Of a stretch of 42,132 bases of DNA, positions 317 through 29,720 are shown piece by piece. The position numbers and the translations under genes are program-made. How positions within the stretch are numbered: position 1 is the first letter of the stretch; every line of letters starts with the position of its first letter. Source of the DNA: Pseudomonadota bacterium (GTDB lineage Bacteria > Bdellovibrionota_F > JAHFAK01 > JBDREC01); NCBI GenBank assembly GCA_043820105.1, contig JBDREC010000088.1:62001-104132 (forward strand), read 5' to 3'. The notes below the pieces were generated by a model. It was not told where the DNA came from and did no database searches. It saw nothing but the letters and a program-made list of their open reading frames with translations.

Positions 317-1735
317 ATGAAAAATATCTTCAAAAAATGGACCCCTCTTAAACCAAATACTAAATACCGAATACTGAATACTAACCACGGCCAGGCCCTA
401 ATAATGTTCGCCCTCTCAGTCATGCTATTCATGGTCCTACTCAGCTTTGTTGCAAATATGTCTCGCTTAACAAACTATAAAATCCGCCTGCAAACAGCTG
501 TAGATATGGCGGCCTATAATGCAGCGGCCATCATGGCTTATTATATGTCGAATGATTCGCCTGATGAGGATTCTGTGGCTGAGATAAACAGGGAAATAAT
601 GATAGATTTCGTGAAATTTCGGGAGGGAGTAACTTTGGCGAATTGTTCTAAGATACCGACTGAACATGGTCCTAGAGAAAACTGTTATCCTGGTATGATG
701 TTAGAAATGTCAGAATGTGATGCTGCCCCTGGAATTGGTCCCCCTTGTACACATCCTGGGGTTGGATCACGGGCAAGTGAATCAATAGATGCATATTATG
801 ATGATTATTTGGCAAGAACCGAAAAAAGACATGAAAAAATCTATTATTTAATGTTAAATGCTTATAAAAACGCAATAACTTCTGCTAAAAAAACTATTGA
901 AGCAAATTTACCTAATGTTGATGTAGAAAATGAACTTATAACAATTGCAAATCCATTAAAATTTATCCAGGAATCTGAAAATATTATCCCTTCATTTTAT
1001 TGCCCTGAAATACAAGCGGGATGGCAAACTGAATATAATTGTTTTTGCACATTATCCTCAAGTCCTGACCCAACATTTATGGCAATGCCTTATGATGAAA
1101 AAATAGGCTCTGTAAACCGCCGACTTATTTTTGACAGAACTAATTCTTCTGGTTATTTTTTAGTAGGCGTTGTTCAAAGTGCCCATGATCCGGTCTTTGA
1201 CCCAAGCACAAAAGAAAAGCCAGCCCCATTTGATTATATGAACTTTTCATCTGCCTTTGGAAGACATGATTTCCCGGCTATGCAGGCCTGGGCAGCTGCT
1301 GCGCCTTATAGAGATTGGAATGAAGTAACAAATTCAAGCGATACACCCATTAGAGACCCCTATTTAAAAGAATACATTCAAAGAACAGTTGATGTAATTC
1401 GTAATTGGCATCATGATCACAAGAGATATCATGAATATTGGAGTAGTCTTAATAATCTACATGGTGACTATTATGCTGAAGGCCCCCCTGATGAAACGGA
1501 TTACGCCCCTGACGCCCTCTTTTACCCAAATCCAAAATACAGAGTTCGCTTCATCCCTCTTGCTGGTGGAGAAGGACCATATGGATTAGGATTATATGGA
1601 AAAGATTCAAGTGCAAATCCATTTGAACTTTTTGGATTATCTGAGATATTATTTGGCAATGATGCATATGTAAATCATTTGGCTTCGTCAGGAGTGAATG
1701 CGCAGAATGCTTATAAGGCGTTGTTTAGGCATTGA
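317..1735 (+). CDS. Tad/Flp pilus TadG-like minor pilin with a Cys-rich C-terminal region
   Basis: Basic leader, then GQALIMFALSVMLF hydrophobic helix and RLQTAVDMAAYNAA, typical of the Tad N-terminal domain. Confidence 0.75.
   Translation: MKNIFKKWTPLKPNTKYRILNTNHGQALIMFALSVMLFMVLLSFVANMSRLTNYKIRLQTAVDMAAYNAAAIMAYYMSNDSPDEDSVAEINREIMIDFVKFREGVTLANCSKIPTEHGPRENCYPGMMLEMSECDAAPGIGPPCTHPGVGSRASESIDAYYDDYLARTEKRHEKIYYLMLNAYKNAITSAKKTIEANLPNVDVENELITIANPLKFIQESENIIPSFYCPEIQAGWQTEYNCFCTLSSSPDPTFMAMPYDEKIGSVNRRLIFDRTNSSGYFLVGVVQSAHDPVFDPSTKEKPAPFDYMNFSSAFGRHDFPAMQAWAAAAPYRDWNEVTNSSDTPIRDPYLKEYIQRTVDVIRNWHHDHKRYHEYWSSLNNLHGDYYAEGPPDETDYAPDALFYPNPKYRVRFIPLAGGEGPYGLGLYGKDSSANPFELFGLSEILFGNDAYVNHLASSGVNAQNAYKALFRH
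355..382 (+). repeat. 4 x 7-mer RAATACY inside the prepilin leader of the TadG-like gene
   Basis: AAATACT AAATACC GAATACT GAATACT. Confidence 0.7.
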
Positions 1736-1738
1736 GAA

Positions 1739-1792
1739 TAAGTGGTAAGTCGTAAGTGGTAAGTGGTAAGTGGTAAGTGGTAAGTCGTAAGT
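1739..1792 (+). repeat. 7 full units plus one partial unit of TAAGT(G/C)G directly after a stop codon; left arm of an inverted pair
   Basis: Read directly; begins 4 nt after the TGA ending at 1735. Confidence 0.97.
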
Positions 1793-1885
1793 ATTTGTTG
1801 ATGAAGTTAAGGTTTTTTGATTTGAATTAAAGATTGAGCTAAGGAGCTTATAAATCAAATTCAGGACGCTAACAAAGAGGAATAA

Positions 1886-2629
1886 ATGAATAAAACCAAA
1901 AACATCCAAAAACTAGCAAAGCCCTTACGACTTACGACTTACCACTTACGACTTACCACTTACCACTTACCACTTACCACTTACCACTTACCACTTAAAC
2001 GCCGTGCCCAAACCATCATCGAATTCGCCTTTGTCGTTTTCTTTATTGCTCTGTTTATCCTTGCTGCTCTTTATTTCTCAAGAGTCCTGAAATTCGCTAC
2101 ATCTAAAAACCTTAGAATTAGAACTGACATTATGAAAGAATATACAACCTGTGAATCCAGATTTTATGATTATTATCTTTTGCAGTCCATGGAAGGAATA
2201 GATAATCCACCCAGTGAAAACCTGGGCTTTAGAACAAATACTCATATTGAAAATCAAGAGCCTTTAAGATGGTTCACAACAGATGGTTCTGGATCAAGAG
2301 ATATTGCTTATATTTACGCGGGAAAAAGCCTTGAGGAGGGAGGATATGCTCCAAACATATTTGCAGATCCAGAAGCAAAGTTTTTTGTTGGCTATGGCTC
2401 ATTTTTGTTAATGTTAAATGAAGATGAACTCCCTGATGCTTCTTTGCCAATGAATGATTACGAATCTTTTCAGGAAGAATATGCAGGTGGAACCTCAGAT
2501 TCATGGACAACTGCTTCGCGAATAGAAAAGTTGAAAGATAATCTTGATTATGAACAAAGGCGGCAATCTGATTACAATAGGGTTTTAGCGGATCCTAATC
2601 GGAATGTTTGGATAAATAATCAGAAATAA
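1886..2629 (+). CDS. TadE-like minor pilin with a repeat-expanded leader peptide
   Basis: GAGGA RBS at 1877-1881; KRRAQTIIEFAFVVFFIALF matches the (G/A)Qxx(I/V)EF prepilin motif plus a hydrophobic helix. Confidence 0.75.
   Translation: MNKTKNIQKLAKPLRLTTYHLRLTTYHLPLTTYHLPLKRRAQTIIEFAFVVFFIALFILAALYFSRVLKFATSKNLRIRTDIMKEYTTCESRFYDYYLLQSMEGIDNPPSENLGFRTNTHIENQEPLRWFTTDGSGSRDIAYIYAGKSLEEGGYAPNIFADPEAKFFVGYGSFLLMLNEDELPDASLPMNDYESFQEEYAGGTSDSWTTASRIEKLKDNLDYEQRRQSDYNRVLADPNRNVWINNQK
1924..1997 (+). repeat. 10 units of CTTAC(C/G)A plus CTTA, in frame in the TadE-like leader; reverse complement of the 1739-1792 array
   Basis: Read directly; translates as LRLTTYHLRLTTYHLPLTTYHLPL. Confidence 0.97.
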
Positions 2630-2639
2630 GTGCTAAGTT

Positions 2640-2724
2640 TGTAGTGGAGGGGCTTGTCCCCTCCTTAATACGGGCAGGGCTTGTCCCTCGCGTAAAAAGG
2701 GAGGGGATAAACCCCTCCCCTACA
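2640..2724. repeat. GTAG-type REP doublet (REPIN-like)
   Basis: TGTAG-tGGAGGGGcttgtCCCCTCC ... GGGAGGGGataaaCCCCTCCC-CTACA: two inverted GC-rich hairpins with GTAG/CTAC feet and a degenerate third copy between them. Confidence 0.8.
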
Positions 2725-2742
2725 AGGATGAAGGAAAGATGA

Positions 2743-3819
2743 ATGTTAAATAAACTTAAAAACCGATTACTCAGTCTTTTGAAAATAGAATCCGTTACCG
2801 GAAAGGAAAAAGAAATCGCTGATTATATTGAATCCCTTTTGGCGAAACAGGCTTCCTATAAAAACATCAGACGTTATGAAAATACTATTATTTGTCATGC
2901 GGATTTAGATAAGGAAAAAAAGAATATTTTATTAGCAGGGCATATGGATACTGTTCCAGGTCATATTGAAATTAGAGAAGATAATGCTCGTGTTTTTGGA
3001 CGAGGCTCTGTTGATATGAAGGCAGGGCTTGCTGTTATGCTCTGTTTGCTGGAAAACCTTTTACCTGCTGACTTAAATTATAATCCTATTTTTTGTTTTT
3101 ATTCCGGGGAGGAAGGAGACTTCACGAGCAACGGTTTAAAAAAGATTATTGAGCATGACCAAAAAGAAAGTGATGAACTAAACGATTTTTGGAATAAAAT
3201 TGCACTGGCTTTTTTACTCGAACCAACAGGAAGCGAAATCCAGCTTGGTTGTCAGGGCTCATTGCATGCCAATATAAAAATCTCTGGAAAAGCCGGCCAT
3301 TCAGCAAGGCCTTTCTTGGCAAATAATGCGATATACAAGGCATATGATTTTATAAATAAAATTAAAGACACTAAAAGCATAGTACATAAAATAAATAATC
3401 TGGAATTTACAGAAGTTTTAGTAATAACTCAGATCAATACCTACACTGCAAATAATGTGATTCCTGGGGAATGTTATGTAAATATTAATCACAGATTTCC
3501 TCCGGGAACAACCAAAGAAATGTCTATTGAAGTAATTAAAAAGCTTATTCCTGATGATGCAAGCCTGGAAATAAAAGACTTTGTACCTTCTGGAAAAATT
3601 GCTGATACTTCTATTCTAGCTGATTTCACTTTAAACTCAGGTGCACAAATCGGAGCCAAGCAAGCATATACTGATGTAGGACTTTTATCCCTGCATGGGA
3701 TTGAGGCGATCAATTTTGGGCCAGGTAATCCGGACATGTGCCATACGGAAAACGAGAGTATTGATGCTGGGGATTTGTTGGGGTGTTATATGGTACTAAA
3801 AAACTTTTTAAAATCTTAA
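2743..3819 (+). CDS. dapE: M20 metallopeptidase, probable succinyl-diaminopimelate desuccinylase
   Basis: LAGHMDTVP, GRGSVDMKAG, GEE, GCQG...GHSARP and NFGPG...CH motifs. Confidence 0.75.
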   Translation: MLNKLKNRLLSLLKIESVTGKEKEIADYIESLLAKQASYKNIRRYENTIICHADLDKEKKNILLAGHMDTVPGHIEIREDNARVFGRGSVDMKAGLAVMLCLLENLLPADLNYNPIFCFYSGEEGDFTSNGLKKIIEHDQKESDELNDFWNKIALAFLLEPTGSEIQLGCQGSLHANIKISGKAGHSARPFLANNAIYKAYDFINKIKDTKSIVHKINNLEFTEVLVITQINTYTANNVIPGECYVNINHRFPPGTTKEMSIEVIKKLIPDDASLEIKDFVPSGKIADTSILADFTLNSGAQIGAKQAYTDVGLLSLHGIEAINFGPGNPDMCHTENESIDAGDLLGCYMVLKNFLKS

Positions 3820-3842
3820 TGTATAAAAATTAATTAATTAAT

Positions 3843-3931
3843 AATTATTAATTGTTAACTATTAATTATTTGATAACAGGTGGACGTTTTAAGAAAAATA
3901 ATTAATAAGTAATAATTAACAATTAATAATT
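3843..3931. repeat. Inverted pair of 7-mer arrays: 4 x AATTATT-like (3843-3870) and 5 x AATAATT-like (3897-3931)
   Basis: Read directly between the dapE stop and the coaE start; the variant AATTGTT is mirrored by AACAATT. Confidence 0.85.
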
Positions 3932-3958
3932 AATGAAAAGACAACAACAAGAAGATAA

Positions 3959-4553
3959 ATGAAAAAATTAGTGATTCTATTAGGCCTCACAGGCTCCTTT
4001 GCTACAGGCAAAAGTCTTATTTCAAGTTTTTTTAAAAAGCATAATATCGCCTTAATTGATGCTGACCAAATCGCTAAAGATATTACAAAAAAAGGTAGTG
4101 CTTGCTATAAAGCCATAAGCGAAACTTTTGGAAAAAAGATATTTTTTGATGATGGGCAAATTAACAGAAAAAAACTTCGCAGGCTTGTTTTTAATGATCA
4201 AGCACAAAGAAAAAAACTAGAGGCCATTTTACATCCTGCAATAAGATCTGAAATAATTACTAAAATTGAAATTTATAAAGATAAAAAAGAAAAGCTAATT
4301 GTAATTGACGCTCCACTGCTCTTTGAAAATGGACTTAATAAATTAATGGATAAAACTATTGTTGTTTTTGTTGATGAAAAAACTCAGCTTATTAGAACCA
4401 AAAAACGAGATAAATATAATGCACGAGAATTAAAAAAAATCATAGACTCACAAATGCCAATTTCCGATAAAATTAAACTTGCAGATTATCTTATTGATAA
4501 TTCGGGAAGTATAGATAATACTTATAAAAAATTCATGAAGGTCTTAGAAGATA

Positions 4554-4570
<17 letters not shown>
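3959..4570 (+). CDS. coaE: Dephospho-CoA kinase
   Basis: GLTGSFATGKS P-loop, IDAD, LEAILHP, DAPLLFE, SQMP. Confidence 0.95.
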
Positions 4571-7233
<2,663 letters not shown>

Positions 7234-7238
7234 TTAAA

Positions 7239-7271
7239 TAAGTGGTAAGTGGTAAGCGGTAAGTGATAAGT
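7239..7271 (-). repeat. About 5 units of CCACTTA (sense strand of pyrG) immediately upstream of the pyrG RBS
   Basis: Plus strand TAAGTGG TAAGTGG TAAGCGG TAAGTGA TAAGT. Confidence 0.92.
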
Positions 7272-7373
7272 AAAAATATAGATTAACACTTATAGCATGA
7301 CGCCTAACACTATATGGGGATTTTTTATCACGGGAGTATTAGTTAAATGCTATAAGGATTTTTGTCAAATGAA

Positions 7374-8423
7374 TTAATGTTTCACTCTCCACTTTGCACC
7401 TCGTCCCAATCCTTTTAATTCTAATAATCCTTCTTCTTTCATTATTATTAGTACTTTTTTTATCATAGCAGCACTAACACTTGGGACCTTGTTTGATATT
7501 CTTGCTAGGCTAAATTCACCAGGTTCATTGAGAATTGCTTGCCTTATAAGTTCTGACTTGTTTTTATGGATATGTGTAATTTTTTCCAAACTATCGTTAA
7601 ATTCACGATAAGCTTCTTTAAGAGTTTCTAAAAAATATTTATGCCAAACCCAAATATCATGTTTTGCATCGTGCCAGTTTTTTGAAGATTCCTTTAATGT
7701 TGCATAATAATTAATCTTAGTTTCTTCAATTATCCTTTCTATACTAATATACTTACCGACTCTATATCCATTTTGGTAAAGAAGGAGTAGTTTCATTAAT
7801 CTCGATACTCTTCCATTTCCATCTCGAAATGGATGTATGCACAAAAAGTCAAAAACAAAAGAGGAAATTACCAATAACTCGGGTAATACTTTTTTATCCA
7901 TTAAATCCTGATAAGCTAAACACAACTGTTCAATATATTTCGAAGTTAGAGAGGCTGCAATTGGAGTAAATCTCACATATCTTTCTCCATTTTCAAATAT
8001 TTCAATAATTTCATTATCTTTTTCTTTAAATTTGCCAGCGTCAGAACAAAGTTCTCCCTGCTGGCAAATTTCATGTAATTTTAAAATGCAGCTGGAATTT
8101 ATTTTAATCTGATCAAATGATTCATGTATCCATTTAAGTGCTTTTTTATACCCTAATATTTCCTCCTCTGGCCGATTATTTGGTTTAACATCACCACTTA
8201 AAAGTGGCTTAAGTCGGCTAGAATCGGTTAATATTCCCTCAATTCTATTTGATGATTCTGTACTTTGAATAATGGCGAGTTCTGTTAAAGTTTTAAGCAT
8301 TTCAGGTTTCAAATTAAACCAATACTTTTCTTTTCCTCTTGATTCCATACATGTTCCAATTAACCATGATATATGAGGTGGAATTTGAATTTTTGATAAA
8401 AATTGAGGTTTAAAAGAATGCAT
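7374..8423 (-). CDS. Fic family protein with a C-terminal winged-helix-like domain
   Basis: HPFRDGNGRVSR Fic motif; N-terminal SSNRIEG inhibitory-type motif; C-terminal GRGAKW wing. Confidence 0.93.
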   Translation of the reverse strand: MHSFKPQFLSKIQIPPHISWLIGTCMESRGKEKYWFNLKPEMLKTLTELAIIQSTESSNRIEGILTDSSRLKPLLSGDVKPNNRPEEEILGYKKALKWIHESFDQIKINSSCILKLHEICQQGELCSDAGKFKEKDNEIIEIFENGERYVRFTPIAASLTSKYIEQLCLAYQDLMDKKVLPELLVISSFVFDFLCIHPFRDGNGRVSRLMKLLLLYQNGYRVGKYISIERIIEETKINYYATLKESSKNWHDAKHDIWVWHKYFLETLKEAYREFNDSLEKITHIHKNKSELIRQAILNEPGEFSLARISNKVPSVSAAMIKKVLIIMKEEGLLELKGLGRGAKWRVKH

Positions 8424-8433
8424 AATCTACTCA

Positions 8434-8466
8434 AATAGGATAATAATAAAATAATATTATCCTATT
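8434..8466. promoter_or_regulatory. 12-bp perfect inverted repeat upstream of fic (candidate operator)
   Basis: AATAGGATAATA-N9-TATTATCCTATT, followed by further ATTATCC-like copies up to about 8493. Confidence 0.5.
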
Positions 8467-8576
8467 ATTATCCAATTATCAATACAATTATCCAATTTAC
8501 AAATAAATGATTTGAAGTTAAAGTCTATAGAAGAAACCGATATTTAAATCTTTTCGGATATTGTGTTTTATCCTTT

Positions 8577-9326
8577 TCACAAATGGAATAATAAGTTTAT
8601 CGCGATTCCATGCCCTTCATCAAGAATATTTTGATAGCCAAGCTCAAGAATAAGAAAATTCCAGATTATACCACCAAGGCCTGCTTCAAATCCAAAATTA
8701 TTCTCATCTTGTAAGGTGGCTTGAACAGCCGAATCAAGTGAAGCGTAAGTTGGAATATTTCTTCTAATTCCATACCAGCCTCCTGATGCTGTTAAATAAA
8801 GTCTTCCTGGAACAAAATAAACCTTTGGATTTAGGGACCAGTTTAAGATATTTGCATCCCAACCAGTAGTATCTACACTGTAACCTGATGAATTTGGATC
8901 AAGGTCCATATCTGCAAAAGTGATGCCTAAGCTAAAATATTTGGCTATAAAAAAATCAAGCCCCATTTTAAAACCAAAACCATTGTTCCATTTATCATAC
9001 ATATTTCCAATTGGCATTAACCAATTCATTCCAATATTTAAAGCAAGATCTCCTGTTTCCTTATCTTCAATTTTTATAATGTTAATTTCCTCACACTGAC
9101 TTTCACCGTCTTTCTTTCTAAACTTTTTGATCTTTTTAATTTTGCCCTTATCCTTCTTAATTTCAATAGTCACAACTTCATCACTATCAACTGTATTATC
9201 TTGTTCTTCTATTCCCTTGTTCTCTTGTTCCCCTGTTCCCTTGTTCTCCTGTTCTCCATCTTGCGCAAAAATAGAAACAGCAAATAAGATTATAAAAACT
9301 AGAATGAATAAACCTTTAAACTTCAT
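8577..9326 (-). CDS. Outer-membrane beta-barrel protein
   Basis: Start moved to ATG 9326 (GGAGG RBS); signal peptide MKFKGLFILVFIILFAVSIFA; amphipathic beta strands with aromatic residues. Confidence 0.65.
   Translation of the reverse strand: MKFKGLFILVFIILFAVSIFAQDGEQENKGTGEQENKGIEEQDNTVDSDEVVTIEIKKDKGKIKKIKKFRKKDGESQCEEINIIKIEDKETGDLALNIGMNWLMPIGNMYDKWNNGFGFKMGLDFFIAKYFSLGITFADMDLDPNSSGYSVDTTGWDANILNWSLNPKVYFVPGRLYLTASGGWYGIRRNIPTYASLDSAVQATLQDENNFGFEAGLGGIIWNFLILELGYQNILDEGHGIAINLLFHL
9212..9259 (-). repeat. 6 x 8-mer CAAGGGAA-like array, in frame just after the signal peptide
   Basis: Plus strand TTCCCTTG TTCTCTTG TTCCCCTG TTCCCTTG TTCTCCTG TTCTCCAT; encodes GEQENKGTGEQENKG. Confidence 0.85.
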
Positions 9327-9349
9327 ATTGGCCTCCTGTTCTCCCAATT

Positions 9350-9377
9350 AATTATTAATTATTAGTTATTAATTATT
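9350..9377 (-). repeat. 4 x AATAATT (sense strand) upstream of a start codon
   Basis: Plus strand AATTATT AATTATT AGTTATT AATTATT. Confidence 0.8.
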
Positions 9378-9419
9378 TTAAAAAAGCACCCAAAACTAAA
9401 ATAAACTATTAATGTATTT

Positions 9420-9435
9420 AGCAACATACATGCCA
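9420..9435 (-). promoter_or_regulatory. Sigma54-type -24/-12 promoter
   Basis: Minus strand TGGCATGTATGTTGCT (GG-N10-GC), about 95 nt upstream of the beta-barrel gene. Confidence 0.65.
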
Positions 9436-9516
9436 AAACCATTCCCAAATAATATTAATAGCTTAGTCTCACTATTTTTTTTCATTTTTGGAATAAATTT
9501 CTCAAATTGAGAAAAC

Positions 9517-11967
9517 TTACTCTAGAGTAATACCTAAATAAATTTCAAAGTTCTCTGTTTTTACAGTAGCTTCGCCACCAAATTGGATATCTTTTGCTCG
9601 AGTTGCACTTTTAATATCAATGACCGTATTTTGAAGAGCCTTTGAAATTTCTGCATCTGATTTAATTCTCAGCTCTGGCAATTCAGTATTAAGTGACAAA
9701 GAGTTTTCTGTTTTATATCTTCTCACACCCTTGACAACTTCAACTAAATATTCGCAAGTCTTTTCAGCTTCTGCATTAATAAAACTTTCGTTGAAAACTG
9801 GCCACTTTGAAATATGTACTGATTTTTCAGAGCCCTCTTTTCTCAATAAGCCTTGAAAAATCTCTTCTGTTACATATGGAATAAAAGGTGCATAAAGCTT
9901 AATAATAGAATCAAGGATAATTGAAATTGTAATTTGAGCAGATAGTTTTTGCTCTTCACCATAAACCTCTGGTTTATACAATCTATCTTTGGCGATTTCT
10001 AAATAATTATCACAAAGATCCAGCCAAAAGAAATGATCAACTGCATTTCTTACTTTTGCAAATTCATAAACTTTAAAGTTTTTGGTAGCACTTTCAATAA
10101 CCCTATTGAGTCTTGAAAGGATCCACTTATCAACAACATTAATGATCTCAGCATCATTATGTTTTTCACAATCAAAATCTGTTAAATGCATTTCTATAAA
10201 CTTTGAGGCATTCCATAGTTTGTTGGCAAGTTTTTTACCTTGAGCAACTTCATCTTCGCTGTAATTAAGATTATTTCCAAGATTAACTGAAGCAGACCAA
10301 TATCTGAGCGCATCAGCTGAATATTTATTCATAACAAAATCAGGGGTTACAAAGTTACCTTTTGATTTGCTCATTTTCTTTCCATGCTCATCAAGGCCCC
10401 AGCCTGAAATCATGACTGTTTCCCAGGGCAAGGAATCTGTATGAAAATGTGATTTAACAACAGTATAAAAAAGCCAGGTCCTGATAATCTCGAAACCTTG
10501 AACACGAACAGTCATTGGATAAACCTGATTTTCCCTGTTTACTTCCTCTTTCCAAAGAGCATTTATTAAAGGAGTAAGTGAAGAGGTCATCCAGGTGTCC
10601 ATTACATCTTTTTCCCCAATAAACTCTTTATGTCCACACTTAGGGCAAGTATCAATGCTTGGACTATCTTGTGTTGGATCAACAGGCAGAGCTTTATCAT
10701 CTGGAACTATAATTTCTTCACACTTTGCACAATACCAAACAGGAAAAGGCACCCCATAATATCTTTGGCGTGAGATACACCAATCCCACTTAAGATTTTC
10801 AACCCAGTTATCATATTGAGTTTTATAATAGGCAGGATACCATTTTAATTCATTTCCTCTTTTTAGCATTTCTTCTTTAACATCAAGCACCTTAATAAAC
10901 CATTGTGGGGTCATATAAAACTCGACAATGGTCCCACATCTTTCATGCACACCAACATTGTGATTAAGTGCTTCTTTTTTAACAACTCTTCCCTGGCTTT
11001 CTAAGATTTCCATAACTTTTTCACGAGCTTCAATGATTTTCATTCCTGCAATTGGTCCTGCTTCTTCAGTAAAAACGCCATTTTTATCAAGAAACAAGCG
11101 AGTATCCAGATTATTTTCACGCCATCTATTAACATCTTCAAAGTCACCCCAGGTACAAACCTGCATTAGTCCTGATCCAAATTCAATATCAACATCTTCA
11201 TCTGCCATTACTTTTACTTGGTGATTTGTAATTGGAATTACCACTTCTTTGCCAATAAGATCTTTATATCTTTCATCATTCGGATTAACAAACAAAGCAA
11301 CGCAAGATGGGATAAGCTCAGGTCTGGTCGTCGCAATTATATACTCATTTTCCTTATCCCCAAAATTAATATAATTTAAAGTTGAGGGTTTTTCTTCTGT
11401 TTCTATTTCAGCTTGAGCAATAGCAGTTTGACATCTTGGACACCATATCATTGGATCGTTTTTTCTTTGTATTCTACCTTTTGAAAAAAGATCAATAAAT
11501 GATCTTTGTGAGATTCTTCTACACTTTTCATTAATGGTGCTGTAAAGCAAAGACCAATCTACTGACAAGCCTAAAGCTCTCCAAAGCTTTTCATAGGTTT
11601 TGCCACCTTCTTTTGTTTCTTTAAGACAGAGTTCAATAAAATCAGATCTTTTAATTTTAGATTTATTTATTTTATGTTTTTTTTCAACAAAGCGTTCTGT
11701 AGGAAGTCCATTATCATCAAAACCCATTGGATAATAAACGTTATATCCCATCATTCTAAAAAACCTAATAACAAATTCTGCCTGAGAATAGCTGATCGCA
11801 TGACCAACATGTAAATGAGCTGAACTTACATAAGGTGGAGGTGTATCAACAGAAAACATCGGCTTAGAAGGGTCATATTTATATTTATATATATCTTCTG
11901 CTTCCCAAAAATTTCGAATCTTTTCTTCAAGCTCAGCAGGTTTATATCTTTTTTCAAGTTTGCTCAT
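9517..11967 (-). CDS. valS: Valine--tRNA ligase (short, archaeal-like type)
   Basis: DTPPPYVS...HVGH, DWCISRQR, DVMDTW, KMSKS; 816 aa with no C-terminal coiled-coil arm evident. Confidence 0.93.
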   Translation of the reverse strand: MSKLEKRYKPAELEEKIRNFWEAEDIYKYKYDPSKPMFSVDTPPPYVSSAHLHVGHAISYSQAEFVIRFFRMMGYNVYYPMGFDDNGLPTERFVEKKHKINKSKIKRSDFIELCLKETKEGGKTYEKLWRALGLSVDWSLLYSTINEKCRRISQRSFIDLFSKGRIQRKNDPMIWCPRCQTAIAQAEIETEEKPSTLNYINFGDKENEYIIATTRPELIPSCVALFVNPNDERYKDLIGKEVVIPITNHQVKVMADEDVDIEFGSGLMQVCTWGDFEDVNRWRENNLDTRLFLDKNGVFTEEAGPIAGMKIIEAREKVMEILESQGRVVKKEALNHNVGVHERCGTIVEFYMTPQWFIKVLDVKEEMLKRGNELKWYPAYYKTQYDNWVENLKWDWCISRQRYYGVPFPVWYCAKCEEIIVPDDKALPVDPTQDSPSIDTCPKCGHKEFIGEKDVMDTWMTSSLTPLINALWKEEVNRENQVYPMTVRVQGFEIIRTWLFYTVVKSHFHTDSLPWETVMISGWGLDEHGKKMSKSKGNFVTPDFVMNKYSADALRYWSASVNLGNNLNYSEDEVAQGKKLANKLWNASKFIEMHLTDFDCEKHNDAEIINVVDKWILSRLNRVIESATKNFKVYEFAKVRNAVDHFFWLDLCDNYLEIAKDRLYKPEVYGEEQKLSAQITISIILDSIIKLYAPFIPYVTEEIFQGLLRKEGSEKSVHISKWPVFNESFINAEAEKTCEYLVEVVKGVRRYKTENSLSLNTELPELRIKSDAEISKALQNTVIDIKSATRAKDIQFGGEATVKTENFEIYLGITLE

Positions 11968-12017
11968 TGTTAATTCCTTAGTAATATTTTAAATTTGAAA
12001 TTATTTTTTGAATAAAA

Positions 12018-12045
12018 TGGATCCTGAAACAAGTCCAGGATGACA
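12018..12045. repeat. Small palindromic extragenic element
   Basis: TGGATCCTGAAACAAGTCCAGGATGACA, with stem ATCCTG/CAGGAT. Confidence 0.5.
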
Positions 12046-12073
12046 CCCCATTGCCAGCAACCAGCAACCCCTA

Positions 12074-12157
12074 CCACTTACCACTTACGACTTACGACTT
12101 ATCACTTACCACTTACGACTTACCACTTACCACTTACGACTTACCACTTACCACTTA
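12074..12157 (-). repeat. 12 x TAAGT(G/C)G (sense strand of the diguanylate cyclase gene) directly after its stop
   Basis: Plus strand CCACTTA/CGACTTA/TCACTTA x12, preceded by 2 x CCAGCAA at 12054-12067. Confidence 0.97.
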
Positions 12158-12161
12158 CCCC

Positions 12162-13064: not shown

Positions 13065-13084
13065 AATATCTTCTTTATTAATTA

Positions 13085-14470: not shown

Positions 14471-14567
14471 GGATATACCTCAAATGTACTTTAATTAGGG
14501 ATGTTTATAAAATTGGTAAATTTAAAGCAAGGTAAAAGTTGGGAATTAAGATTAAAACAATCTATGT

Positions 14568-16079: not shown

Positions 16080-16185
16080 TTTCTTTACCTTTTTTGTTAA
16101 TATTAATCTAAAAAAACGACCATCTGTTTATCTAATTAAACTAAAAAGGCAATGAAAAAAACCAAGATTTGTCAAAAATGACGTC

Positions 16186-16226
16186 TCCCCTTGTTCCCCT
16201 GTTCCCTTGTTCCCCTTGTTCTCTTG
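16186..16226 (+). repeat. About 5 x 8-mer TTCCCTTG-like array in a divergent intergenic region
   Basis: TCCCCTTG TTCCCCTG TTCCCTTG TTCCCCTTG TTCTCTTG. Confidence 0.85.
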
Positions 16227-16267
16227 AAAAACTTGACCTAAATAAAAAGATAAAGCATATTAAGAAT

Positions 16268-17804: not shown

Positions 17805-17818
17805 GCTATAAAAATAAT

Positions 17819-18403
17819 ATGGAAATTAATTCACAAGGAAACATACAAAAACTCTTAGATTATTTTGCAGAAAATAATATTATCACCATAAGTGAACTTG
17901 GAAATCTACACTTAGAAGCAAAAGCTCAAAACAAACCAATAACCGCTTTGTTAAGAGAAAAAGAGATAATAACCGAGACTGAGCTTTTAAAAATTGTCTC
18001 AAAGCTTTACAAATTAAAAATTATCAACCTTTCGAAATCAAAAGTCTCAAAAGATGTAAAATATCTCCTTTCTGAAAAAATATTATTAAATTTTTCCTGT
18101 GTTCCAGTTGCCCTTGAGGGAAAAAAACTTGTCATGGCTTTTAGTATGCTTCCTGATAATATTTTCATTGAATCAATTGAATCTGTCATAAACAAAAAAA
18201 TTAAAATATTATTGGCAAATCACCATGAAATCGTGACCCTGATTAATAAAGAAATCATCCCTCTTTTCAGAACTAGCGGCTCCCGTCAAGATTCTAGCAG
18301 ACGATATGATATTTATATCGCGAAACTAAACTCTTTAGCAATTTTCATGATCTACTCTGGAATAATGTCAGACAAAGAACTTGAAAACTTTTTGGAAGAT
18401 TAA
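17819..18403 (+). CDS. Degenerate MshEN/T2SSE_N-like protein
   Basis: LLREKEIITETELLKIVS...CVPVALEGKKLVMAF pattern. Confidence 0.6.
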   Translation: MEINSQGNIQKLLDYFAENNIITISELGNLHLEAKAQNKPITALLREKEIITETELLKIVSKLYKLKIINLSKSKVSKDVKYLLSEKILLNFSCVPVALEGKKLVMAFSMLPDNIFIESIESVINKKIKILLANHHEIVTLINKEIIPLFRTSGSRQDSSRRYDIYIAKLNSLAIFMIYSGIMSDKELENFLED

Positions 18404-18410
18404 ACCAATA

Positions 18411-19313
18411 ATGGATCTTAAAAAAAGAATTAAAAGCCTTGCTTTAAAACTTGGGGCAAGTGACATAGCTTTTACAAATGTAAAAAACTTCGATCTTTTA
18501 GATAATTTTTTTATCTATAAAAATGAAAAAAATGTGCCTGGAATGGAATATATTTCTAATTCAATTGAAAAGCGCCTTTTTCCATTAAAAGAGCATCCTT
18601 TTGCAAAAACTGCTATAATGATAGCTGTAGCTAATAAGCTAGAAAAGAAACCAGATCTAGGTTTTAAAATAGCTGAATATGCCCTAAGCCTTGATTATCA
18701 TATAAGAGTAAAGGAAATATTATCTATCATTGAATTTAGCTTACAGAAATTAGGTCTACAGACATATTCATTTGTTGATGCTCAGCCTGTGCTCGAAAAA
18801 CATCTGGCATCGCGCGCAGGTCTTGGAAAGTGGGGTAAAAATGGTCTATTGTATAATAAAAAATGTGGTAGCTATTTTAATATAGGTGGCATATTTACTG
18901 ATTTAAAAATCAAAGTTGTAAATACAAATGATTTAAAGTTAGACTGCGGAGATTGTAATAAATGCATTGAAGCATGCCCAACTAATGCTATTAAAGAAAA
19001 TTATAAAATTGATCCTGTAAAATGCATTTCCTATCAGACCATTGAAAACAAAGAAGATATTAATGAGTCAATCAAGCCAAAATTAAGCAATTATATTTTT
19101 GGTTGTGACATTTGCCAGCTGGTTTGCCCCAAAAACTCAAATATTAAGGGAAGCTTACTTCCACTTGAATTACTTAAAATAAAATCTCTCACTGATCAAA
19201 TATTATCTCTGGATTCTAATAAAGAATATAAAAGAAAATTCAGTGAAAGCCCACTTGGAAGGTTAAAACTTGAAAAAATAAAAAACAACATCAAAGCAGC
19301 AACCAGCAACTAG
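18411..19313 (+). CDS. queG: Epoxyqueuosine reductase
   Basis: DYH, VDAQPVLEK, AGLGKWGKN, CGDCNKCIEACPT, CISYQTIE, FGCDICQLVCP. Start moved to ATG 18411. Confidence 0.9.
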   Translation: MDLKKRIKSLALKLGASDIAFTNVKNFDLLDNFFIYKNEKNVPGMEYISNSIEKRLFPLKEHPFAKTAIMIAVANKLEKKPDLGFKIAEYALSLDYHIRVKEILSIIEFSLQKLGLQTYSFVDAQPVLEKHLASRAGLGKWGKNGLLYNKKCGSYFNIGGIFTDLKIKVVNTNDLKLDCGDCNKCIEACPTNAIKENYKIDPVKCISYQTIENKEDINESIKPKLSNYIFGCDICQLVCPKNSNIKGSLLPLELLKIKSLTDQILSLDSNKEYKRKFSESPLGRLKLEKIKNNIKAATSN

Positions 19314-19325
19314 CAACCAGCAACT
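19298..19325 (+). repeat. 4 x AGCAAC(C/T) spanning the queG stop codon
   Basis: AGCAACC AGCAACT AGCAACC AGCAACT. Confidence 0.85.
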
Positions 19326-19394
19326 ATTTATTTGACTTTTATCAGACATTCGCCTAAAGACGCACTACATTAAAAATGGTTGGAGTACTTTGAA

Positions 19395-19634
19395 ATGGCT
19401 AATAAAGTCAACTTGGAAAAATCACTCGGAGAAATAGAAGAAATTGTAAGCAAGCTTGAAAAAGGCAATATTACGATTGACGAATCAATCAAACTCTTTG
19501 AATCAGGTGCTAAAAAAATTAAAGAATGCGGTGCTTTTTTAGAAAAAATGGAAGAAAAAATTAGTAGCGTTGTTATAAATGATGATAATTATAGCCTAGA
19601 TAAATTTGACTTTCACCTGGATAGTAAAGAATAA
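19395..19634 (+). CDS. xseB: Exodeoxyribonuclease VII small subunit
   Basis: EEIVSKLEKGNITIDESIKLFESG; xseB-ispA-dxs gene order; GGAG RBS before ATG 19395. Confidence 0.9.
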   Translation: MANKVNLEKSLGEIEEIVSKLEKGNITIDESIKLFESGAKKIKECGAFLEKMEEKISSVVINDDNYSLDKFDFHLDSKE

Positions 19635-19677
19635 TTTCTCTGGCATAGAATAAGCACCCCAAAACAGGATCAAATCC

Positions 19678-20553
19678 GTGGAAATAAACAAATACCTATC
19701 CGAAAATAAAAAGTATATTAACACTTTAATTTCAACTTATTTTGATTCACAGAATATAACCCAAAGCACCTTACTAAAAGCAATGGAATACAGCATGAAA
19801 GCTGGAGGAAAAAGACTCAGACCAATCCTGTGTTTATCAACTTTTAATATTTATAATGATAATACAGATAAAATATCAAATTTTTTATTAGCCATTGAAA
19901 TGATCCACACATACTCTTTGATTCACGACGATCTACCTGCAATGGATGATGATAACTATAGAAGAGGAAAGCTTACAAATCACAAAAAATTTGGTGAAGC
20001 CATCGCCATTTTAGCAGGTGATGCGCTTTTAACTGATGCCTTTTGGCTAATGGCAAACACTGAAATTACAGGCTCTAATTTAATTCAAGCAATAAGTTGT
20101 TTTTCCCAGGCAGCTGGCTCAGGTGGGATGGTTAGTGGTCAAGTCCTTGACATAGAAGCAATTGGAAAAGAAATTGACCTTAACGCTTGCTTAAAAATGC
20201 ACGCTAACAAAACCGCTGCCTTAATCAAGGCAAGCATCGTTTGTGGCGCTCTTTTAGCCGAGGCTCCTAAAAATCATTTAGCAAAACTTGAACTATTCGG
20301 TGAAAATATTGGACTTGCCTTCCAAATAATGGATGACGTTCTTGATGATGAAGAAAGTGCAAATATGGGTAAGGATATTGGATCTGACAAGACAAAAAAT
20401 AAACCAACAATATTGTCCTTGCTTGGTAAAGAAAAAAGCTATAAGCTGATTAATGATTATTTTAATAAAGCTATCGAAGCTCTTGAGTTTCTAGATGATA
20501 AGGCTTGTTATCTAAAACAAATAGCAGCTTTTATAATTAAAAGGAAAAGTTAA
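19678..20553 (+). CDS. ispA: Farnesyl/geranylgeranyl diphosphate synthase
   Basis: GGKRLRP, SLIHDDLPAMDDD..RRG, FQIMDDVLD. Confidence 0.93.
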   Translation: MEINKYLSENKKYINTLISTYFDSQNITQSTLLKAMEYSMKAGGKRLRPILCLSTFNIYNDNTDKISNFLLAIEMIHTYSLIHDDLPAMDDDNYRRGKLTNHKKFGEAIAILAGDALLTDAFWLMANTEITGSNLIQAISCFSQAAGSGGMVSGQVLDIEAIGKEIDLNACLKMHANKTAALIKASIVCGALLAEAPKNHLAKLELFGENIGLAFQIMDDVLDDEESANMGKDIGSDKTKNKPTILSLLGKEKSYKLINDYFNKAIEALEFLDDKACYLKQIAAFIIKRKS

Positions 20554-20557
20554 ACTA

Positions 20558-22501: not shown

Positions 22502-22502
22502 A

Positions 22503-22961: not shown

Positions 22962-22974
22962 TAGCTACACAATT

Positions 22975-23009
22975 AATTATTATTTATTAATTATTAATTA
23001 TTAATTATT
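22975..23009 (+). repeat. 5 x AATTATT after the dut stop
   Basis: Read directly; one unit is ATTTATT. Confidence 0.85.
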
Positions 23010-23146: not shown

Positions 23147-23162
23147 TGGCAAGGAATTTGCA
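23147..23162 (+). promoter_or_regulatory. Sigma54-type -24/-12 promoter
   Basis: TGGCAAGGAATTTGCA (GG-N10-GC), 40 nt upstream of ATG 23203. Confidence 0.65.
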
Positions 23163-23202
23163 AATACTGCTTGCACTTTTCAATTAAGCATGGAGTGTAA
23201 TC

Positions 23203-25289: not shown

Positions 25290-25292
25290 AAG

Positions 25293-25820: not shown

Positions 25821-25891
25821 ACTTATATTTCCAAAACATCAAATAATTAAATTAATAAAAAAAGCAGACATACATCAATCTTCTAATTCTG

Positions 25892-26596: not shown

Positions 26597-26784
26597 AAGC
26601 TTTATTTTTAATTTATTCAAAGTTAAATCCTATGTTTACTTAATTATAATAACTTTAACAATTGATTTCCCCTAATCTTTAATTTTTGAAAATAAAAGTG
26701 TCAACGTTTGATACAGAATTTTATAGACTTTAGAGATTATATTTTTTATGCAAATAGAATGATTATCTAAATTATTGAAGCAAT

Positions 26785-27435: not shown

Positions 27436-28430
27436 GCATTCTAAACAAAACAGGGGAATTTGCTCTTATAGAAAAAATCAAAGAGCTCTTTCCCAAAAAT
27501 TATCCTGATGAGGTCATTTGTGGTATTGGCGATGATACTGCTATTATTAAAAAGGATGATAATCACTCAATTTTAGCAACAGTGGATATGCAAGTTGAGG
27601 GAAAACATTTTGACACAAAATATGCAAGTTTCTATGAAATTGGGCAAAAAGCACTTTCTGTTAATATAAGTGATATCGCTGCAATGGGAGGAAAACCAAG
27701 TTTTGCATTTATTTCACTTGGTCTGCCAGGCAATTTAGAAACAAATACTTTTGATCAAATCATGCATGGCATAAAAAAAGAAGCAACAGAATATCAGATA
27801 AGTGTACTTGGTGGTAATATTGCAAAAACAAATCAAATTATCATTGATATATTTTTAATGGGAGAAATCAATACCAAGCACATCCTTAAAAGAAGTGGAG
27901 CAAAAATAAGTGATAGAATTTTCGTCACCGGAAACCTTGGATCATCGGCTCTTGGTTTAAAAATGTTACAGGATTTTGGGAAAGACTATCCAAGAGAATT
28001 TGAAAACTCTGTAAAGGCTCACTTAAAACCAGTTCCAAGAATAAAGGCAGGACAAGTAATAGCAAAAGCTGGCTATGCAACAGCAATGATAGATATTAGT
28101 GATGGCCTTATCCAAGATCTGGAACATGTTTGCGAAGCAAGTAAAGTTGGTGCAATTATTTATAAAGATAAATTGCCTGTTGCCCATGATGTGCAAACTC
28201 CAGAATATAGCATAAAAGATTTGGCTCTATGTGGAGGTGAAGATTATGAACTGCTTTTTACCATGAAAAGTGACACCTCCATTGGCCTTATAGAATCTCT
28301 TTTTAAGGAGAGCGGAGTTAAGCTTACAGAGATTGGCAAGATTACAGATTATGAGGATAAGATTAAGATTTTGGATAAAGATGGTGGTGATGTTAAGCTA
28401 TTAAGCAAAGGTTGGGACCATTATAGGTAG
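27432..28430 (+). CDS. thiL: Thiamine-monophosphate kinase
   Basis: GEFALI, GIGDDTA, NISDIAAMGG, IDISDGL, GGEDYELLFT. Confidence 0.96.
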   Translation: MSILNKTGEFALIEKIKELFPKNYPDEVICGIGDDTAIIKKDDNHSILATVDMQVEGKHFDTKYASFYEIGQKALSVNISDIAAMGGKPSFAFISLGLPGNLETNTFDQIMHGIKKEATEYQISVLGGNIAKTNQIIIDIFLMGEINTKHILKRSGAKISDRIFVTGNLGSSALGLKMLQDFGKDYPREFENSVKAHLKPVPRIKAGQVIAKAGYATAMIDISDGLIQDLEHVCEASKVGAIIYKDKLPVAHDVQTPEYSIKDLALCGGEDYELLFTMKSDTSIGLIESLFKESGVKLTEIGKITDYEDKIKILDKDGGDVKLLSKGWDHYR

Positions 28431-28504
28431 TAAGTCATAAGTGGTAAGTTGTAAGTTGTAAGTTGTAAGTATAAATCTTTAAAACACTTACCACTTACCA
28501 CTTA
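28431..28504. repeat. Inverted pair: about 6 TAAGTNN units (28431-28470), 15-nt spacer, about 3 CCACTTA units (28486-28504)
   Basis: Fills most of the thiL-anmK intergenic region. Confidence 0.93.
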
Positions 28505-28518
28505 TAAAAAGGATACTC

Positions 28519-29694
28519 ATGTCAAACAATTTATTCATAGGTGCCATATCAGGCACATCAATGGACGGACTTGATGTTTCGATTTTAGACATATGCAAAA
28601 AGTCCAGGGAAAATTATGCTTTTAATTCTATTTTCTTTAAAACGTATAAATATCCTGATGCATTAAACGCAGAATTAAAACAACTTGTTTTCACAAAAGA
28701 ATTTGAGCTTAAGGATTTTTGTGAACTGCAATATAAGATGGGAAAATTCTTTGCAGAAAGTATTCTTAAAGCCGTCAAGGCTTCAGGAATTAATAAGCAA
28801 GATATTAAAGCAATTGGCTCCCATGGTCAAAATATTTATCACCTGCCAAGTAGTATTAGTGATGAACCATATTCTTTTCAAATAGGCCACCCCTCAATAA
28901 TCGCAGGACTTACAGACATTACAACAGTTTCAGATTTTAGAATGGCTGATATTATCGCCCATGGAGAGGGAGCGCCCCTGGCCCCGATTTTTCACTATCA
29001 CTTTTTTAAAAAGTTTAAAAAGTCGTTCATTGTATTGAACATCGGTGGAATTGCAAATATTACAGTGATTGATTATTCAAAAGAAAAAATAAAAGTTTCA
29101 GGCTTTGATACAGGCCCTGGAAATACTCTAATTGACAGAGCAATGAATCGTCTCTTTAAATTGCCTTATGACAAGAATGGACAGATTGCTAAAAAAGGAA
29201 AAGTAGATTATTCAATAATAAAAAAACTATTAAAAAATGATTATTTCCAGAAAAACAACCCAAAGTCTTCTGGTCTTGAAAAATTTGATGACAAGTATTT
29301 AAAAAGCATCATTCGAAAACTACGAGCTAAAAGAGCAAATAAAAATGACATTATTTCAAGCTTAACAGCTTTAACAGCTGAATCGATTTCTTTAAGCTTA
29401 AATAAACATCTCAGAAAAAACATGGATACTGTTGTTTTATGTGGCGGTGGCCCCAAAAATAGCACAATGATTTCCTTTTTAAAAAATCTTCATCCAGACC
29501 TATCTTTTATAAATTCTGATAAATTTGGAATTTCAATCGACGAAATGGAAGCGGACTTATTTGCATTTTTAGCTTATTTATCCATTAATGGCCATAGAGT
29601 TAACCTAAAAACAGTAACAGGTTCAAAAAAAGAAATTTGCTTGGGAGTAATTGCACCTGGTGGTAATTATAGGTCTGTATACCTCTCACATTAA
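28519..29694 (+). CDS. anmK: Anhydro-N-acetylmuramic acid kinase
   Basis: SGTSMDGLD, GSHGQ, DFR..D...GEGAPL, NIGGIAN, DTGPGN. Confidence 0.95.
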   Translation: MSNNLFIGAISGTSMDGLDVSILDICKKSRENYAFNSIFFKTYKYPDALNAELKQLVFTKEFELKDFCELQYKMGKFFAESILKAVKASGINKQDIKAIGSHGQNIYHLPSSISDEPYSFQIGHPSIIAGLTDITTVSDFRMADIIAHGEGAPLAPIFHYHFFKKFKKSFIVLNIGGIANITVIDYSKEKIKVSGFDTGPGNTLIDRAMNRLFKLPYDKNGQIAKKGKVDYSIIKKLLKNDYFQKNNPKSSGLEKFDDKYLKSIIRKLRAKRANKNDIISSLTALTAESISLSLNKHLRKNMDTVVLCGGGPKNSTMISFLKNLHPDLSFINSDKFGISIDEMEADLFAFLAYLSINGHRVNLKTVTGSKKEICLGVIAPGGNYRSVYLSH

Positions 29695-29720
29695 TTATTA
29701 ATTATTGATTATTAATTATT
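29693..29720 (+). repeat. 4 x AATTATT starting within the anmK stop codon
   Basis: AATTATT AATTATT GATTATT AATTATT. Confidence 0.85.

Follow-up and report, generated by a model that had tools for sequence, protein, structure and literature searches.

The 42-kb window analysed here (the whole stretch of 42,132 nucleotides, from contig JBDREC010000088.1 of a bacterium placed in Bdellovibrionota_F) carries 18 short tandem arrays, and the arrays of its two main unit families, TAAGTGG and AATTATT, are oriented relative to the genes beside them. Arrays that begin at a stop codon or beyond it have their G/T-rich strand as sense, and those ahead of a start codon or just inside it have their C/A-rich strand as sense; in other words, the G-rich strand points 5' to 3' away from the nearest open reading frame (ORF), in either orientation of that ORF. 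This one rule is obeyed by all 13 boundary arrays of the two families and so in 9 of 9 spacers (sign test p ~0.002), spacers being counted rather than arrays because an inverted pair reads alike on both strands and was therefore counted once. The arrays are dispersed heptanucleotide simple-sequence arrays, of the class known as short tandemly repeated repetitive (STRR) sequences or long simple sequence repeats (SSRs), and TAAGTNG, together with AATTATT and others, is a new unit family and a new lineage of this known, unexplained class. Their polarity needs neither G-quadruplexes, nor stop-codon asymmetry, nor complementary arms.

Arrays were detected with Tandem Repeats Finder (TRF) and by direct reading of the sequence; the degenerate array at 2627 was found by reading only and is not listed by TRF. 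Altogether they span 743 bases at about 12 loci and fall into five unit families: TAAGTGG (six TRF arrays plus a degenerate three-unit array starting at the stop codon at 2627), AATTATT (five arrays), the octamer GAACAAGG (three), CAGCAAC (two) and AAATACT (one). TRF and reading place the arrays within 15 bases of the coordinates given in the original prediction, a note made from the sequence alone, and its count of more than 15 arrays with 7- or 8-base units is borne out. Period 7 is specific: our own scan at a score of at least 14 found 9 arrays of period 7, 1 of period 8 and 4 of period 4 in the window and none of periods 5, 6 or 9 to 12, and 30 Markov-1 shuffles of the window contained no period-7 array against the 9 real ones. 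The prediction was also right that there are five families and that units vary at few fixed positions (in TAAGTGG, mostly at position 6), but not that all of the families are unrelated, because the complement of AAATACT has the AGT core of TAAGTGG. According to a map of 36 ORFs, 10.6% of the window is non-coding and 89.4% coding, and about 14 of the 18 arrays lie within or overlap non-coding DNA. The predicted location at gene boundaries does not apply to two of the three octamer arrays, which are inside ORFs as 24-base in-frame repeats. The arrays are, in order:

355..384, minus strand: AAATACT, 4.3 copies (complement AGTATTT), inside ORF 317-1735 at codons 13-23, before the Tad-type N-terminal segment.
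1739..1792, plus strand: TAAGTGG/TAAGTCG, 7.7 copies, 3 bases past the TGA stop of ORF 317-1735; left arm of an inverted pair.
1924..1997, minus strand: CCACTTA/CGACTTA, 10.6 copies, in frame in ORF 1886-2629 at codons 13-37, giving LRLTTYH peptide repeats; right arm of that pair.
2627..2647, plus strand: degenerate TAAGTGC-TAAGTTT-GTAGTGG, its first TAA being the stop codon of ORF 1886-2629; seen by direct reading.
3828..3870, plus strand: AATTATT, 6 copies, 9 bases past the dapE stop; left arm of an inverted pair.
3897..3934, minus strand: AATAATT, 5.4 copies, ending 24 bases ahead of the coaE ATG; right arm of that pair.
5141..5197, plus strand: octamer AGAACAAG/CAAGGGAA, inside ORF 4554-5654.
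7239..7271, plus strand: TAAGTGG on the plus strand, 4.7 copies; on the minus strand this is CCACTTA, running up to the AAGGAG Shine-Dalgarno site, 8-15 bases ahead of the pyrG GTG.
9199..9257, minus strand: octamer GAACAAGR with a 24-base period, inside ORF 8577-9347, coding for EQENKGTG repeats.
9347..9377, plus strand: ATTAATT on the plus strand, 4.4 copies; on the minus strand this is AATAATT, and it lies about 20 bases upstream of the ATG (near 9326) of an ORF resembling an outer-membrane protein.
12054..12069, minus strand: CCAGCAA on the plus strand (GTTGCTG on the minus), 2.3 copies, directly after the 12072-12159 array on the minus strand.
12072..12159, minus strand: CCACTTA on the plus strand, 12.6 copies; the minus strand reads TAAGTGG, 2 bases past the TGA stop of the FHA-GGDEF gene.
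16186..16226, minus strand: octamer CCCTTGTT, in the divergent spacer between ORF 14568-16079 (minus) and a LolB-like ORF (plus).
19297..19324, minus strand: CAGCAAC on the plus strand, 4 copies, overlapping the queG TAG stop; the C-rich strand is sense, an exception to the rule.
22972..23009, plus strand: ATTAATT, 5.4 copies, 10 bases past the dut stop.
28430..28470, plus strand: TAAGTCA/TGG/TTG, 5.9 copies, directly after the thiL TAG stop; left arm of an inverted pair.
28485..28504, minus strand: CCACTTA, 2.9 copies, ending 14 bases ahead of the anmK ATG, beside AAAGGA; right arm of that pair.
29690..29720, plus strand: ATTAATT, 4.4 copies, with the anmK TAA stop (29692-29694) in the first unit.

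The density of arrays along the contig is uneven, the last 12 kb being empty: no array of at least three copies occurs past position 29720 (29721-42132), despite spacers of 122, 153 and 473 bases. In the longest array, the position-6 variants of 12113-12159 repeat as CCA-CCA-CGA, which gives a 21-base higher-order period (three units, seven codons, two helical turns) and suggests duplication of three-unit blocks.

The evidence for the rule within the window comes from both gene ends and both strands. TAAGTGG is sense at four stops, those of ORF 317-1735, ORF 1886-2629, the FHA-GGDEF gene (minus strand) and thiL, and CCACTTA is sense at three sites: the first 37 codons of ORF 1886-2629, the pyrG Shine-Dalgarno site (minus strand) and the region before anmK. 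In the AATTATT family, the T-rich strand is sense past the dapE and dut stops and over the anmK stop, and upstream of coaE and of the ORF starting near 9326 the sense strand is the A-rich one; these units have stop codons on both strands, yet the rule is kept in 5 of 5 arrays. Inverted pairs occur at three loci (1739/1924, 3828/3897 and 28430/28485). Within the 42 kb, the G-rich strand of the TAAGTGG arrays is the plus strand three times and the minus strand three times, which indicates that the polarity is relative to genes and not to the replication strand. The original prediction had described this arrangement for both families and had linked it to transcription rather than replication direction, and in these respects the four stop sites and three start-side sites, the five AATTATT arrays and the even use of both strands agree with it. 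An exception in the window is the CAGCAAC array at 19297, which breaks the G-rich rule, its C-rich strand being sense over the queG stop. A crude ORF rule (at least 100 amino acids, longest first) lost dut in the window and so created one false violation at 22969. Ordinary stop codons of the 36 ORFs in the window show no preferred TAAGT context.

To see the rule outside the window, we used a scan for three TAAGTNG units in one genome per bacterial or archaeal species, which returned at least 117 loci, 80 of them with 2-kb flanks. The order in which these loci were sampled is unknown, none comes from the genome of the window, and arrays that share a spacer are not independent; ORFs were called crudely (at least 100 amino acids, translation table 11, longest first). 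The counts below are for these listed loci. They come most frequently from Bacteroidota, and also from Cyanobacteria, Chloroflexota, Patescibacteria, Elusimicrobiota, Proteobacteria, Acidobacteriota, Planctomycetota, Firmicutes and Omnitrophota, and include the complete or isolate genomes of Arcticibacter sp. MXS-1, Calothrix parasitica NIES-267 and Terrimonas ferruginea DSM 30193. Among the 81 TAAGTNG arrays of the 80 flanked loci, the nearest ORF lay 5' of the G-rich strand in 44 cases and 3' in 9 (p = 1.2e-6); another 13 arrays were inside an ORF, all with the G-rich strand antisense, and 15 were unclassified. When split by the type of boundary, with one tie put on the 5' side and 27 of the 81 arrays unclassified, the arrays nearest a stop had the G-rich strand sense in 29 cases and antisense in 4, and the arrays nearest a start had it antisense in 16 and sense in 5. 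In these loci, too, orientation is not random with respect to genes. Opposed neighbouring arrays at most 300 bases apart were convergent in 17 cases and divergent in none (p = 1.5e-5), and 14 further adjacent pairs shared their polarity. In many of the convergent pairs the two units were non-complementary, and hairpin formation was therefore rejected as the reason for the convergent order.

The rule is not confined to TAAGTNG. A further 41 period-7 arrays with other units in the 80 flanked loci followed it by 20 to 6 (p = 0.009). Of the properties tried for orienting these units, an excess of G over C was the best predictor (20 vs 6), followed by keto-richness (20 vs 9), and purine-richness was rejected (17 vs 12, not significant). 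Units without stop asymmetry, that is with stop codons on both strands, on neither or on the C-rich strand only, obeyed the rule by 15 to 2 (7 vs 2 next to stops and 8 vs 0 next to starts), so that stop-codon content was rejected as the full cause of the polarity. Of the 41 arrays with other units, 20 had AGT on the G/T-rich strand, where 19% would be expected (p = 1e-5), and only 2 had it on the opposite strand. Many of the other families found near TAAGTNG arrays therefore look, by sequence, like diverged relatives of TAAGTNG. Period 7 again stands out: the 300,838 bases of other genomes contain 164 period-7 arrays, about 114 of which are there by locus selection, and 11, 3, 6, 10, 3, 0, 0 and 1 arrays of periods 4, 5, 6, 8, 9, 10, 11 and 12, respectively. 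Overall 48 different units were seen, and position 6 of TAAGTNG was A, C, G and T in 33, 31, 29 and 21 arrays, respectively. In the 10 other genomes for which two or three loci are listed, the loci of a genome have the same or overlapping sets of position-6 variants: TCG only at both loci of a Thermoanaerobaculia genome, TTG at both loci of another genome, and mainly TCG and TTG at three loci of a Lewinellaceae genome; the window has TGG and TCG at three loci. These shared sets strengthen the earlier argument that recurrence of one unit at distant loci is an unlikely product of independent slippage from random seeds. TAAGTNG arrays also occur at the very ends of contigs (loci L001, L014, L037, L058, L060 and L077), with up to 33 units in L077. 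Such contig-end arrays evidently break short-read assemblies, and censuses under-count arrays.

We then compared the arrays with known systems, drawing on Rehm et al. 2015 (PMC4692102), MacGregor 2015 (PMC4679880) and a Nostoc preprint (10.1101/2022.06.06.494920). The original prediction had named no established mechanism for a multi-family polarised pattern. The polarised pattern itself does have a precedent: PMC4692102 reports the same geometry for GGGAATC in two Xanthomonas species and GGGGA(C/T)T in Nostoc PCC 7120. There, repeats lie near the 5' neighbouring ORF in either ORF orientation. Those downstream of an ORF are on the coding strand and overlap the stop or lie at most 50 bp from it, and those upstream of an ORF occupy the non-coding strand. 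For these repeats, 70-75 convergent pairs and no leading- or lagging-strand preference are reported, most repeats are transcribed, their positions are conserved and their length is variable between species, no function is identified, and the pattern is linked to G-quadruplexes. The window arrays resemble the repeats of PMC4692102 in being dispersed, mostly intergenic heptamers that vary at one or two fixed positions, and in their ORF-relative geometry, convergent inverted pairs, lack of strand bias and lack of a theme among neighbouring genes. They differ in lineage, in units and in that their units cannot form G-quadruplexes: no TAAGTGG array in the window has a GGG run and AATTATT has no G, so that four or more runs of at least three G do not occur. 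Hence the G-quadruplex explanation of PMC4692102 is not the cause of the polarity that the two systems share. Tandem GGGAATC, GGGGATT and GGGGACT are absent from the window.

A second system, in PMC4679880, consists of TAACTGA repeats just upstream of starts in marine Beggiatoaceae, some Cyanobacteria and Bacteroidetes, in spacers without canonical ribosome-binding sites; in Flexibacter litoralis one reverse-oriented set lies right after a stop. The same source describes a scattered phylogenetic distribution, mixed heptamers and 7-base indels between strains. The complement of TAACTGA, TCAGTTA, has the AGT core, and the TAACTGA repeats therefore follow the same orientation rule as the window; TCAGTTA is also one base from the TGAGTTA units of other listed loci. 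TAACTGA itself occurs in the window seven times singly and never in tandem. Unlike the TAACTGA system, the window arrays are as common at stops as at starts, and Shine-Dalgarno sites are used. Five listed loci (L023, L026, L040, L044 and L054) are instead like the Beggiatoaceae of PMC4679880, with a C-rich array 6-9 bases ahead of the start and no Shine-Dalgarno-like sequence between.

The window arrays are also like cyanobacterial STRR in forming intergenic tandem arrays of several heptamer families per genome; three tandem heptanucleotides of Calothrix PCC 7601 are cited in PMC4692102, and the Nostoc preprint has heptamer repeats at or over start codons. The three classical STRR units have no tandem occurrence in the window, and the organism does not look cyanobacterial, its one lead being to Candidatus Omnitrophota, from the Atlas. 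What places the window arrays in the heptanucleotide SSR class is that head-to-tail 7-base units are present in at least three copies and above chance, that the arrays occupy many separate loci, are strongly intergenic and include several unit families per genome, and that they show the ORF-relative polarity and convergent pairs of Rehm et al. 2015. A single literature search on doubled units and their complements found no bacterial description of the TAAGTNG unit family, its listed matches being one C. elegans neuroscience study in preprint and journal form.

Arrays occupy the untranslated DNA as far as the ORF edge, and their junctions with genes show how the units meet coding sequence. Usually the stop codon opens the first unit, and that unit is often degenerate. 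In the 32 stop-adjacent junctions compared, a unit inside the array supplies the stop as its TAA or TAG, or the stop begins a degenerate first unit; in most of the other junctions it lies at most about 5 bases from the array. At the FHA-GGDEF gene of the window, for instance, the junction reads TGAGGGG-TAAGTGG and the stop is the first triplet of a degenerate unit. Among the listed loci, 13 of the 29 stop-adjacent arrays include the stop codon itself. The NCBIfam matches of thiL, dapE, dut and anmK extend to the ends of the profiles, which indicates that their C-termini are native and were not truncated by the arrays. On the start side, leader arrays stop 6-10 bases ahead of the start in 7 of the 18 cases compared, leaving no room for a Shine-Dalgarno site; the leader arrays of the window end at the Shine-Dalgarno site instead. 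In array-containing ORFs, the array is within the first 125 bases in 9 of 14 listed, and some of these may be over-extended ORF calls. Read from the unit, every frame of TAAGTNG contains TAA, and CNACTTA lacks stop codons as well as ATG, GTG and TTG. This codon content accounts for the finding of only the C-rich strand as sense inside ORFs, for arrays that can be read through in the leader of the Tad-like ORF, and for arrays that can reach into a stop codon. Indeed, the C-rich strand is sense in 13 of 13 TAAGTNG arrays inside ORFs of the listed loci and in the one in the window.

The most likely explanation, to which we give about an even chance, is that strand slippage produces the arrays and that what mRNA tolerates at ORF edges then determines which of them persist. 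Slippage would generate arrays and change their length, with a 7-base register favoured, and selection at ORF edges would decide which orientation survives. Past a stop, the G/T-rich strand would be tolerated as sense, and TAAGTNG, with a stop in three frames, could let an array reach or replace the native stop. In leaders and N-terminal coding sequence, only a C/A-rich sense strand would be tolerated, being G-poor, without stop or start codons and predicted to be unstructured. Both orientations in one spacer would give long hairpins as a by-product, and frameshifts could switch the Tad pseudopilin-like genes that have two of the arrays in their leader-coding part. The 41 other period-7 arrays and the 48 units suggest a mechanism that is generic for 7-base units and not a single factor tied to one sequence. 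According to the summary in PMC4679880, Mrazek et al. 2007 found heptanucleotides to be the most abundant class of long SSRs, perhaps through a fit to the polymerase that favours slippage; the 7-base indels that PMC4679880 describes are between Cyanothece strains, and in the Xanthomonas species of PMC4692102 it is at conserved positions that array length varies.

Several observations weigh against this explanation. Units without stop asymmetry obey the rule, and GGGAATC arrays do likewise. It is not obvious that selection in 3' untranslated regions is strong enough to produce the 29 vs 4 seen at stops, and the convergent order of 17 of 17 opposed pairs, one geometry for stops and starts, would be accounted for more simply by a polar cause at the DNA level. 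Slippage from random seeds also leaves unexplained why one unit family is found at four loci in 42 kb, why loci within a genome share unit mixtures and why TAAGTNG occurs in many phyla. Finally, predicted structure is no greater for the G-rich than for the C-rich strand, so that an argument by which structure repels ribosomes is unsupported here.

The folding predictions bear on another explanation, in which the arrays are elements acting as RNA or single strands. Each array would be an unstructured polymer on which a protein assembles with a footprint of 7 nucleotides. In leaders this protein would bind the C/A-rich strand and so control translation, and the G/T-rich strand or paired hairpins would act on 3' stability, processing or termination. 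Cold-shock proteins of the oligonucleotide-binding (OB) fold, ribosomal protein S1 and HutP-like rings are candidate binders. Single TAAGTGG arrays, the longest of 88 nt, are predicted not to fold (minimum free energy 0 kcal/mol for either strand), which is unusual at such length, and arrays adjoin the Shine-Dalgarno site or the start codon. Paired arrays form very stable predicted hairpins: -114.7 kcal/mol (z -14.3) for 1739/1924, -22.2 kcal/mol (z -4.3) for 3828/3897 and -24.4 kcal/mol (z -4.0) for 28430/28485. MacGregor (PMC4679880) proposes binding of S1, Csp or CsrA and translational control, the Nostoc preprint (10.1101/2022.06.06.494920) reports that deleting heptamers beside the recO start alters reporter activity and speculates on a binding protein, and most Xanthomonas repeats are transcribed (PMC4692102). 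However, a single sequence-specific protein could not read the many units of a genome (five families in the window), the flanking genes are housekeeping genes without a common theme, and the many non-complementary convergent pairs show that hairpins are not the point. Covariance models gave no Rfam match at gathering score in the whole window, and a terminator scan of bases 1-20000 found 6 sites against 12.0 expected, none of them an array or array pair. The terminator-like hairpin at 12041-12021 (minus strand), 3' of the FHA-GGDEF array, is separate from that array. The pair 28430/28485 is beyond the scanned region and, by reading, is then followed by UAUAAAAAGG. Promoter-like sites are at shuffle level (88 vs 85.7), and Rehm et al. 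(PMC4692102) found no regulatory role. We therefore regard a protein platform as unlikely.

The geometry that is awkward for slippage is what a polar DNA process would predict. Here, breaks or gaps in spacers would have their 3' ends extended with G/T-rich repeats, by synthesis templated as in telomeres or by reiterative repair, before the ends are rejoined, and the survivors would be the events in which resection halted at ORF edges. Such a process predicts a G-rich strand pointing away from each flanking ORF in either orientation, convergent pairs (17 vs 0) even with differing units, arrays that start at or just inside the end of a coding sequence, and genome-specific unit mixtures common to the loci of a genome; the absence of replication-strand bias, in the window and in PMC4692102, is also in its favour. 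We know of no bacterial precedent for polar addition of repeats to DNA. In the window we saw neither a reverse transcriptase nor a template RNA nor another candidate enzyme, and the five unit families there would require several templates. The spacer in pair 1739/1924 has a working ribosome-binding site, an ATG and 12 codons, and 123 array cores show no 5'/3' gradient of degeneracy, unit identity decaying alike on both sides. All-against-all blastn of the 117 listed loci showed unrelated flanks, with only two weak pairs (66-75% identity), and by reading the window arrays share no flanks either. Thus, for the dispersal or templated synthesis that the original prediction had proposed we found nothing, neither related flanks nor an associated enzyme gene, and we consider polar addition distinctly improbable.

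The unrelated flanks argue in the same way against the arrays being a small mobile element, such as a miniature inverted-repeat transposable element (MITE), a repetitive extragenic palindrome (REP) or a REP doublet forming a hairpin (REPIN). Like REPs, REPINs and bacterial interspersed mosaic elements (BIMEs), the arrays are intergenic, can form hairpins and often follow stop codons, and the inverted pairs in spacers are reminiscent of REPINs. Each REP is one conserved palindrome that RAYT transposases mobilise. Unlike REPs, REPINs and MITEs, the arrays consist of tandem heptamers with unrelated flanks and have no conserved ends that spread as a block; the repeats are strictly tandem and the arrays at most 92 bases long. 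The occurrence of arrays at contig ends in several assemblies (for example L001, L014, L060 and L077) could indicate an assembly artefact, but arrays are present in complete and isolate genomes as well. A mobile element or an artefact is, in our judgement, very improbable.

A function limited to a few arrays deserves more weight. The arrays at 355-384 and 1924-1997, inside ORFs, may be phase-variation switches of two adjacent Tad pseudopilin-like genes, with the intergenic arrays as neutral background. Both are in N-terminal leader codons ahead of a hydrophobic Tad-type segment, a 7-base unit shifts the frame, and C-rich sense keeps all frames open through the array. They would thereby resemble contingency loci, in which SSRs near the N-termini of surface genes are the usual signature (PMC4692102 and PMC4679880), their unit length being indivisible by 3 and their position the 5' coding part of pilus-like genes. 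Unlike contingency loci, most window arrays flank housekeeping genes and follow stops. The assignment of the two genes is also at issue. ORF 317-1735 matches Pfam PF13400 (Tad) marginally, over residues 25-71 with 22.5 bits against a cut-off of 22.3, and ORF 1886-2629 has no family match, Tad included. The Atlas clusters nearest to the latter are hypothetical proteins of Candidatus Omnitrophota, and its Atlas lead is a cluster with TadE in 10% of members. Its own protein cluster has a single member, and a search for relatives gave 7 matches among 691 candidates, of which only the protein itself was full length and the rest covered 10-19% of the query, through the repeat peptide. Phase variation of these two genes therefore seems possible but somewhat doubtful.

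Finally, the arrays could be a gene-boundary marking system common to many phyla, with a single cause other than codon selection. The rule holds with and without stop codons and with and without G-quadruplex potential, and in Bacteroidota, Cyanobacteria, Proteobacteria, Chloroflexota and Patescibacteria as well as in the lineage of the window. Polar 3'-end addition of G/T-rich 7-base units in spacers, or proteins with a 7-nucleotide footprint coating unstructured strands, are possibilities for such a cause. We think a marking system of this kind improbable and retain slippage followed by selection at ORF edges as our working explanation.

The genes beside the arrays are ordinary housekeeping genes and include dapE, coaE, pyrG, valS, pgi, queG, ispA, dxs, dut, thiL and anmK, among others. 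The octamers of GAACAAGG type code for EQxNKGTG-like peptides in two ORFs, one of which is weakly similar to an outer-membrane beta-barrel. Common descent of these two ORFs was rejected, because their similarity is limited to the peptide that the repeat encodes (9 of 13 residues, E = 0.028). GGGAGAACAGGAGG, which is related to the octamer array, is the ribosome-binding site of ORF 8577-9326. Between ORF 1886-2629 and dapE, positions 2650-2721 contain a 27-base repeat (2.1 copies) with G+C-rich stem-loops (GGAGGGG...CCCCTCC); the stem-loop at 2721-2702 (minus strand) in this repeat scored as terminator-like and is unlike the surrounding A+T-rich arrays. Positions 19395-19634, between queG and ispA, hold a 79-codon ORF that is below the 100-amino-acid cut-off of the ORF list and by eye resembles an exonuclease VII small subunit.

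Among long simple repeats, those with heptanucleotide units are the most frequent in many bacteria, and their origin and strict orientation lack an explanation. A polarity that is free of G-quadruplexes, is not due to stop codons only and extends to TAAGTNG in many phyla narrows the possible causes. In practice, the arrays break assemblies, lengthen ORF calls through leaders and may switch pilus genes by frameshift.

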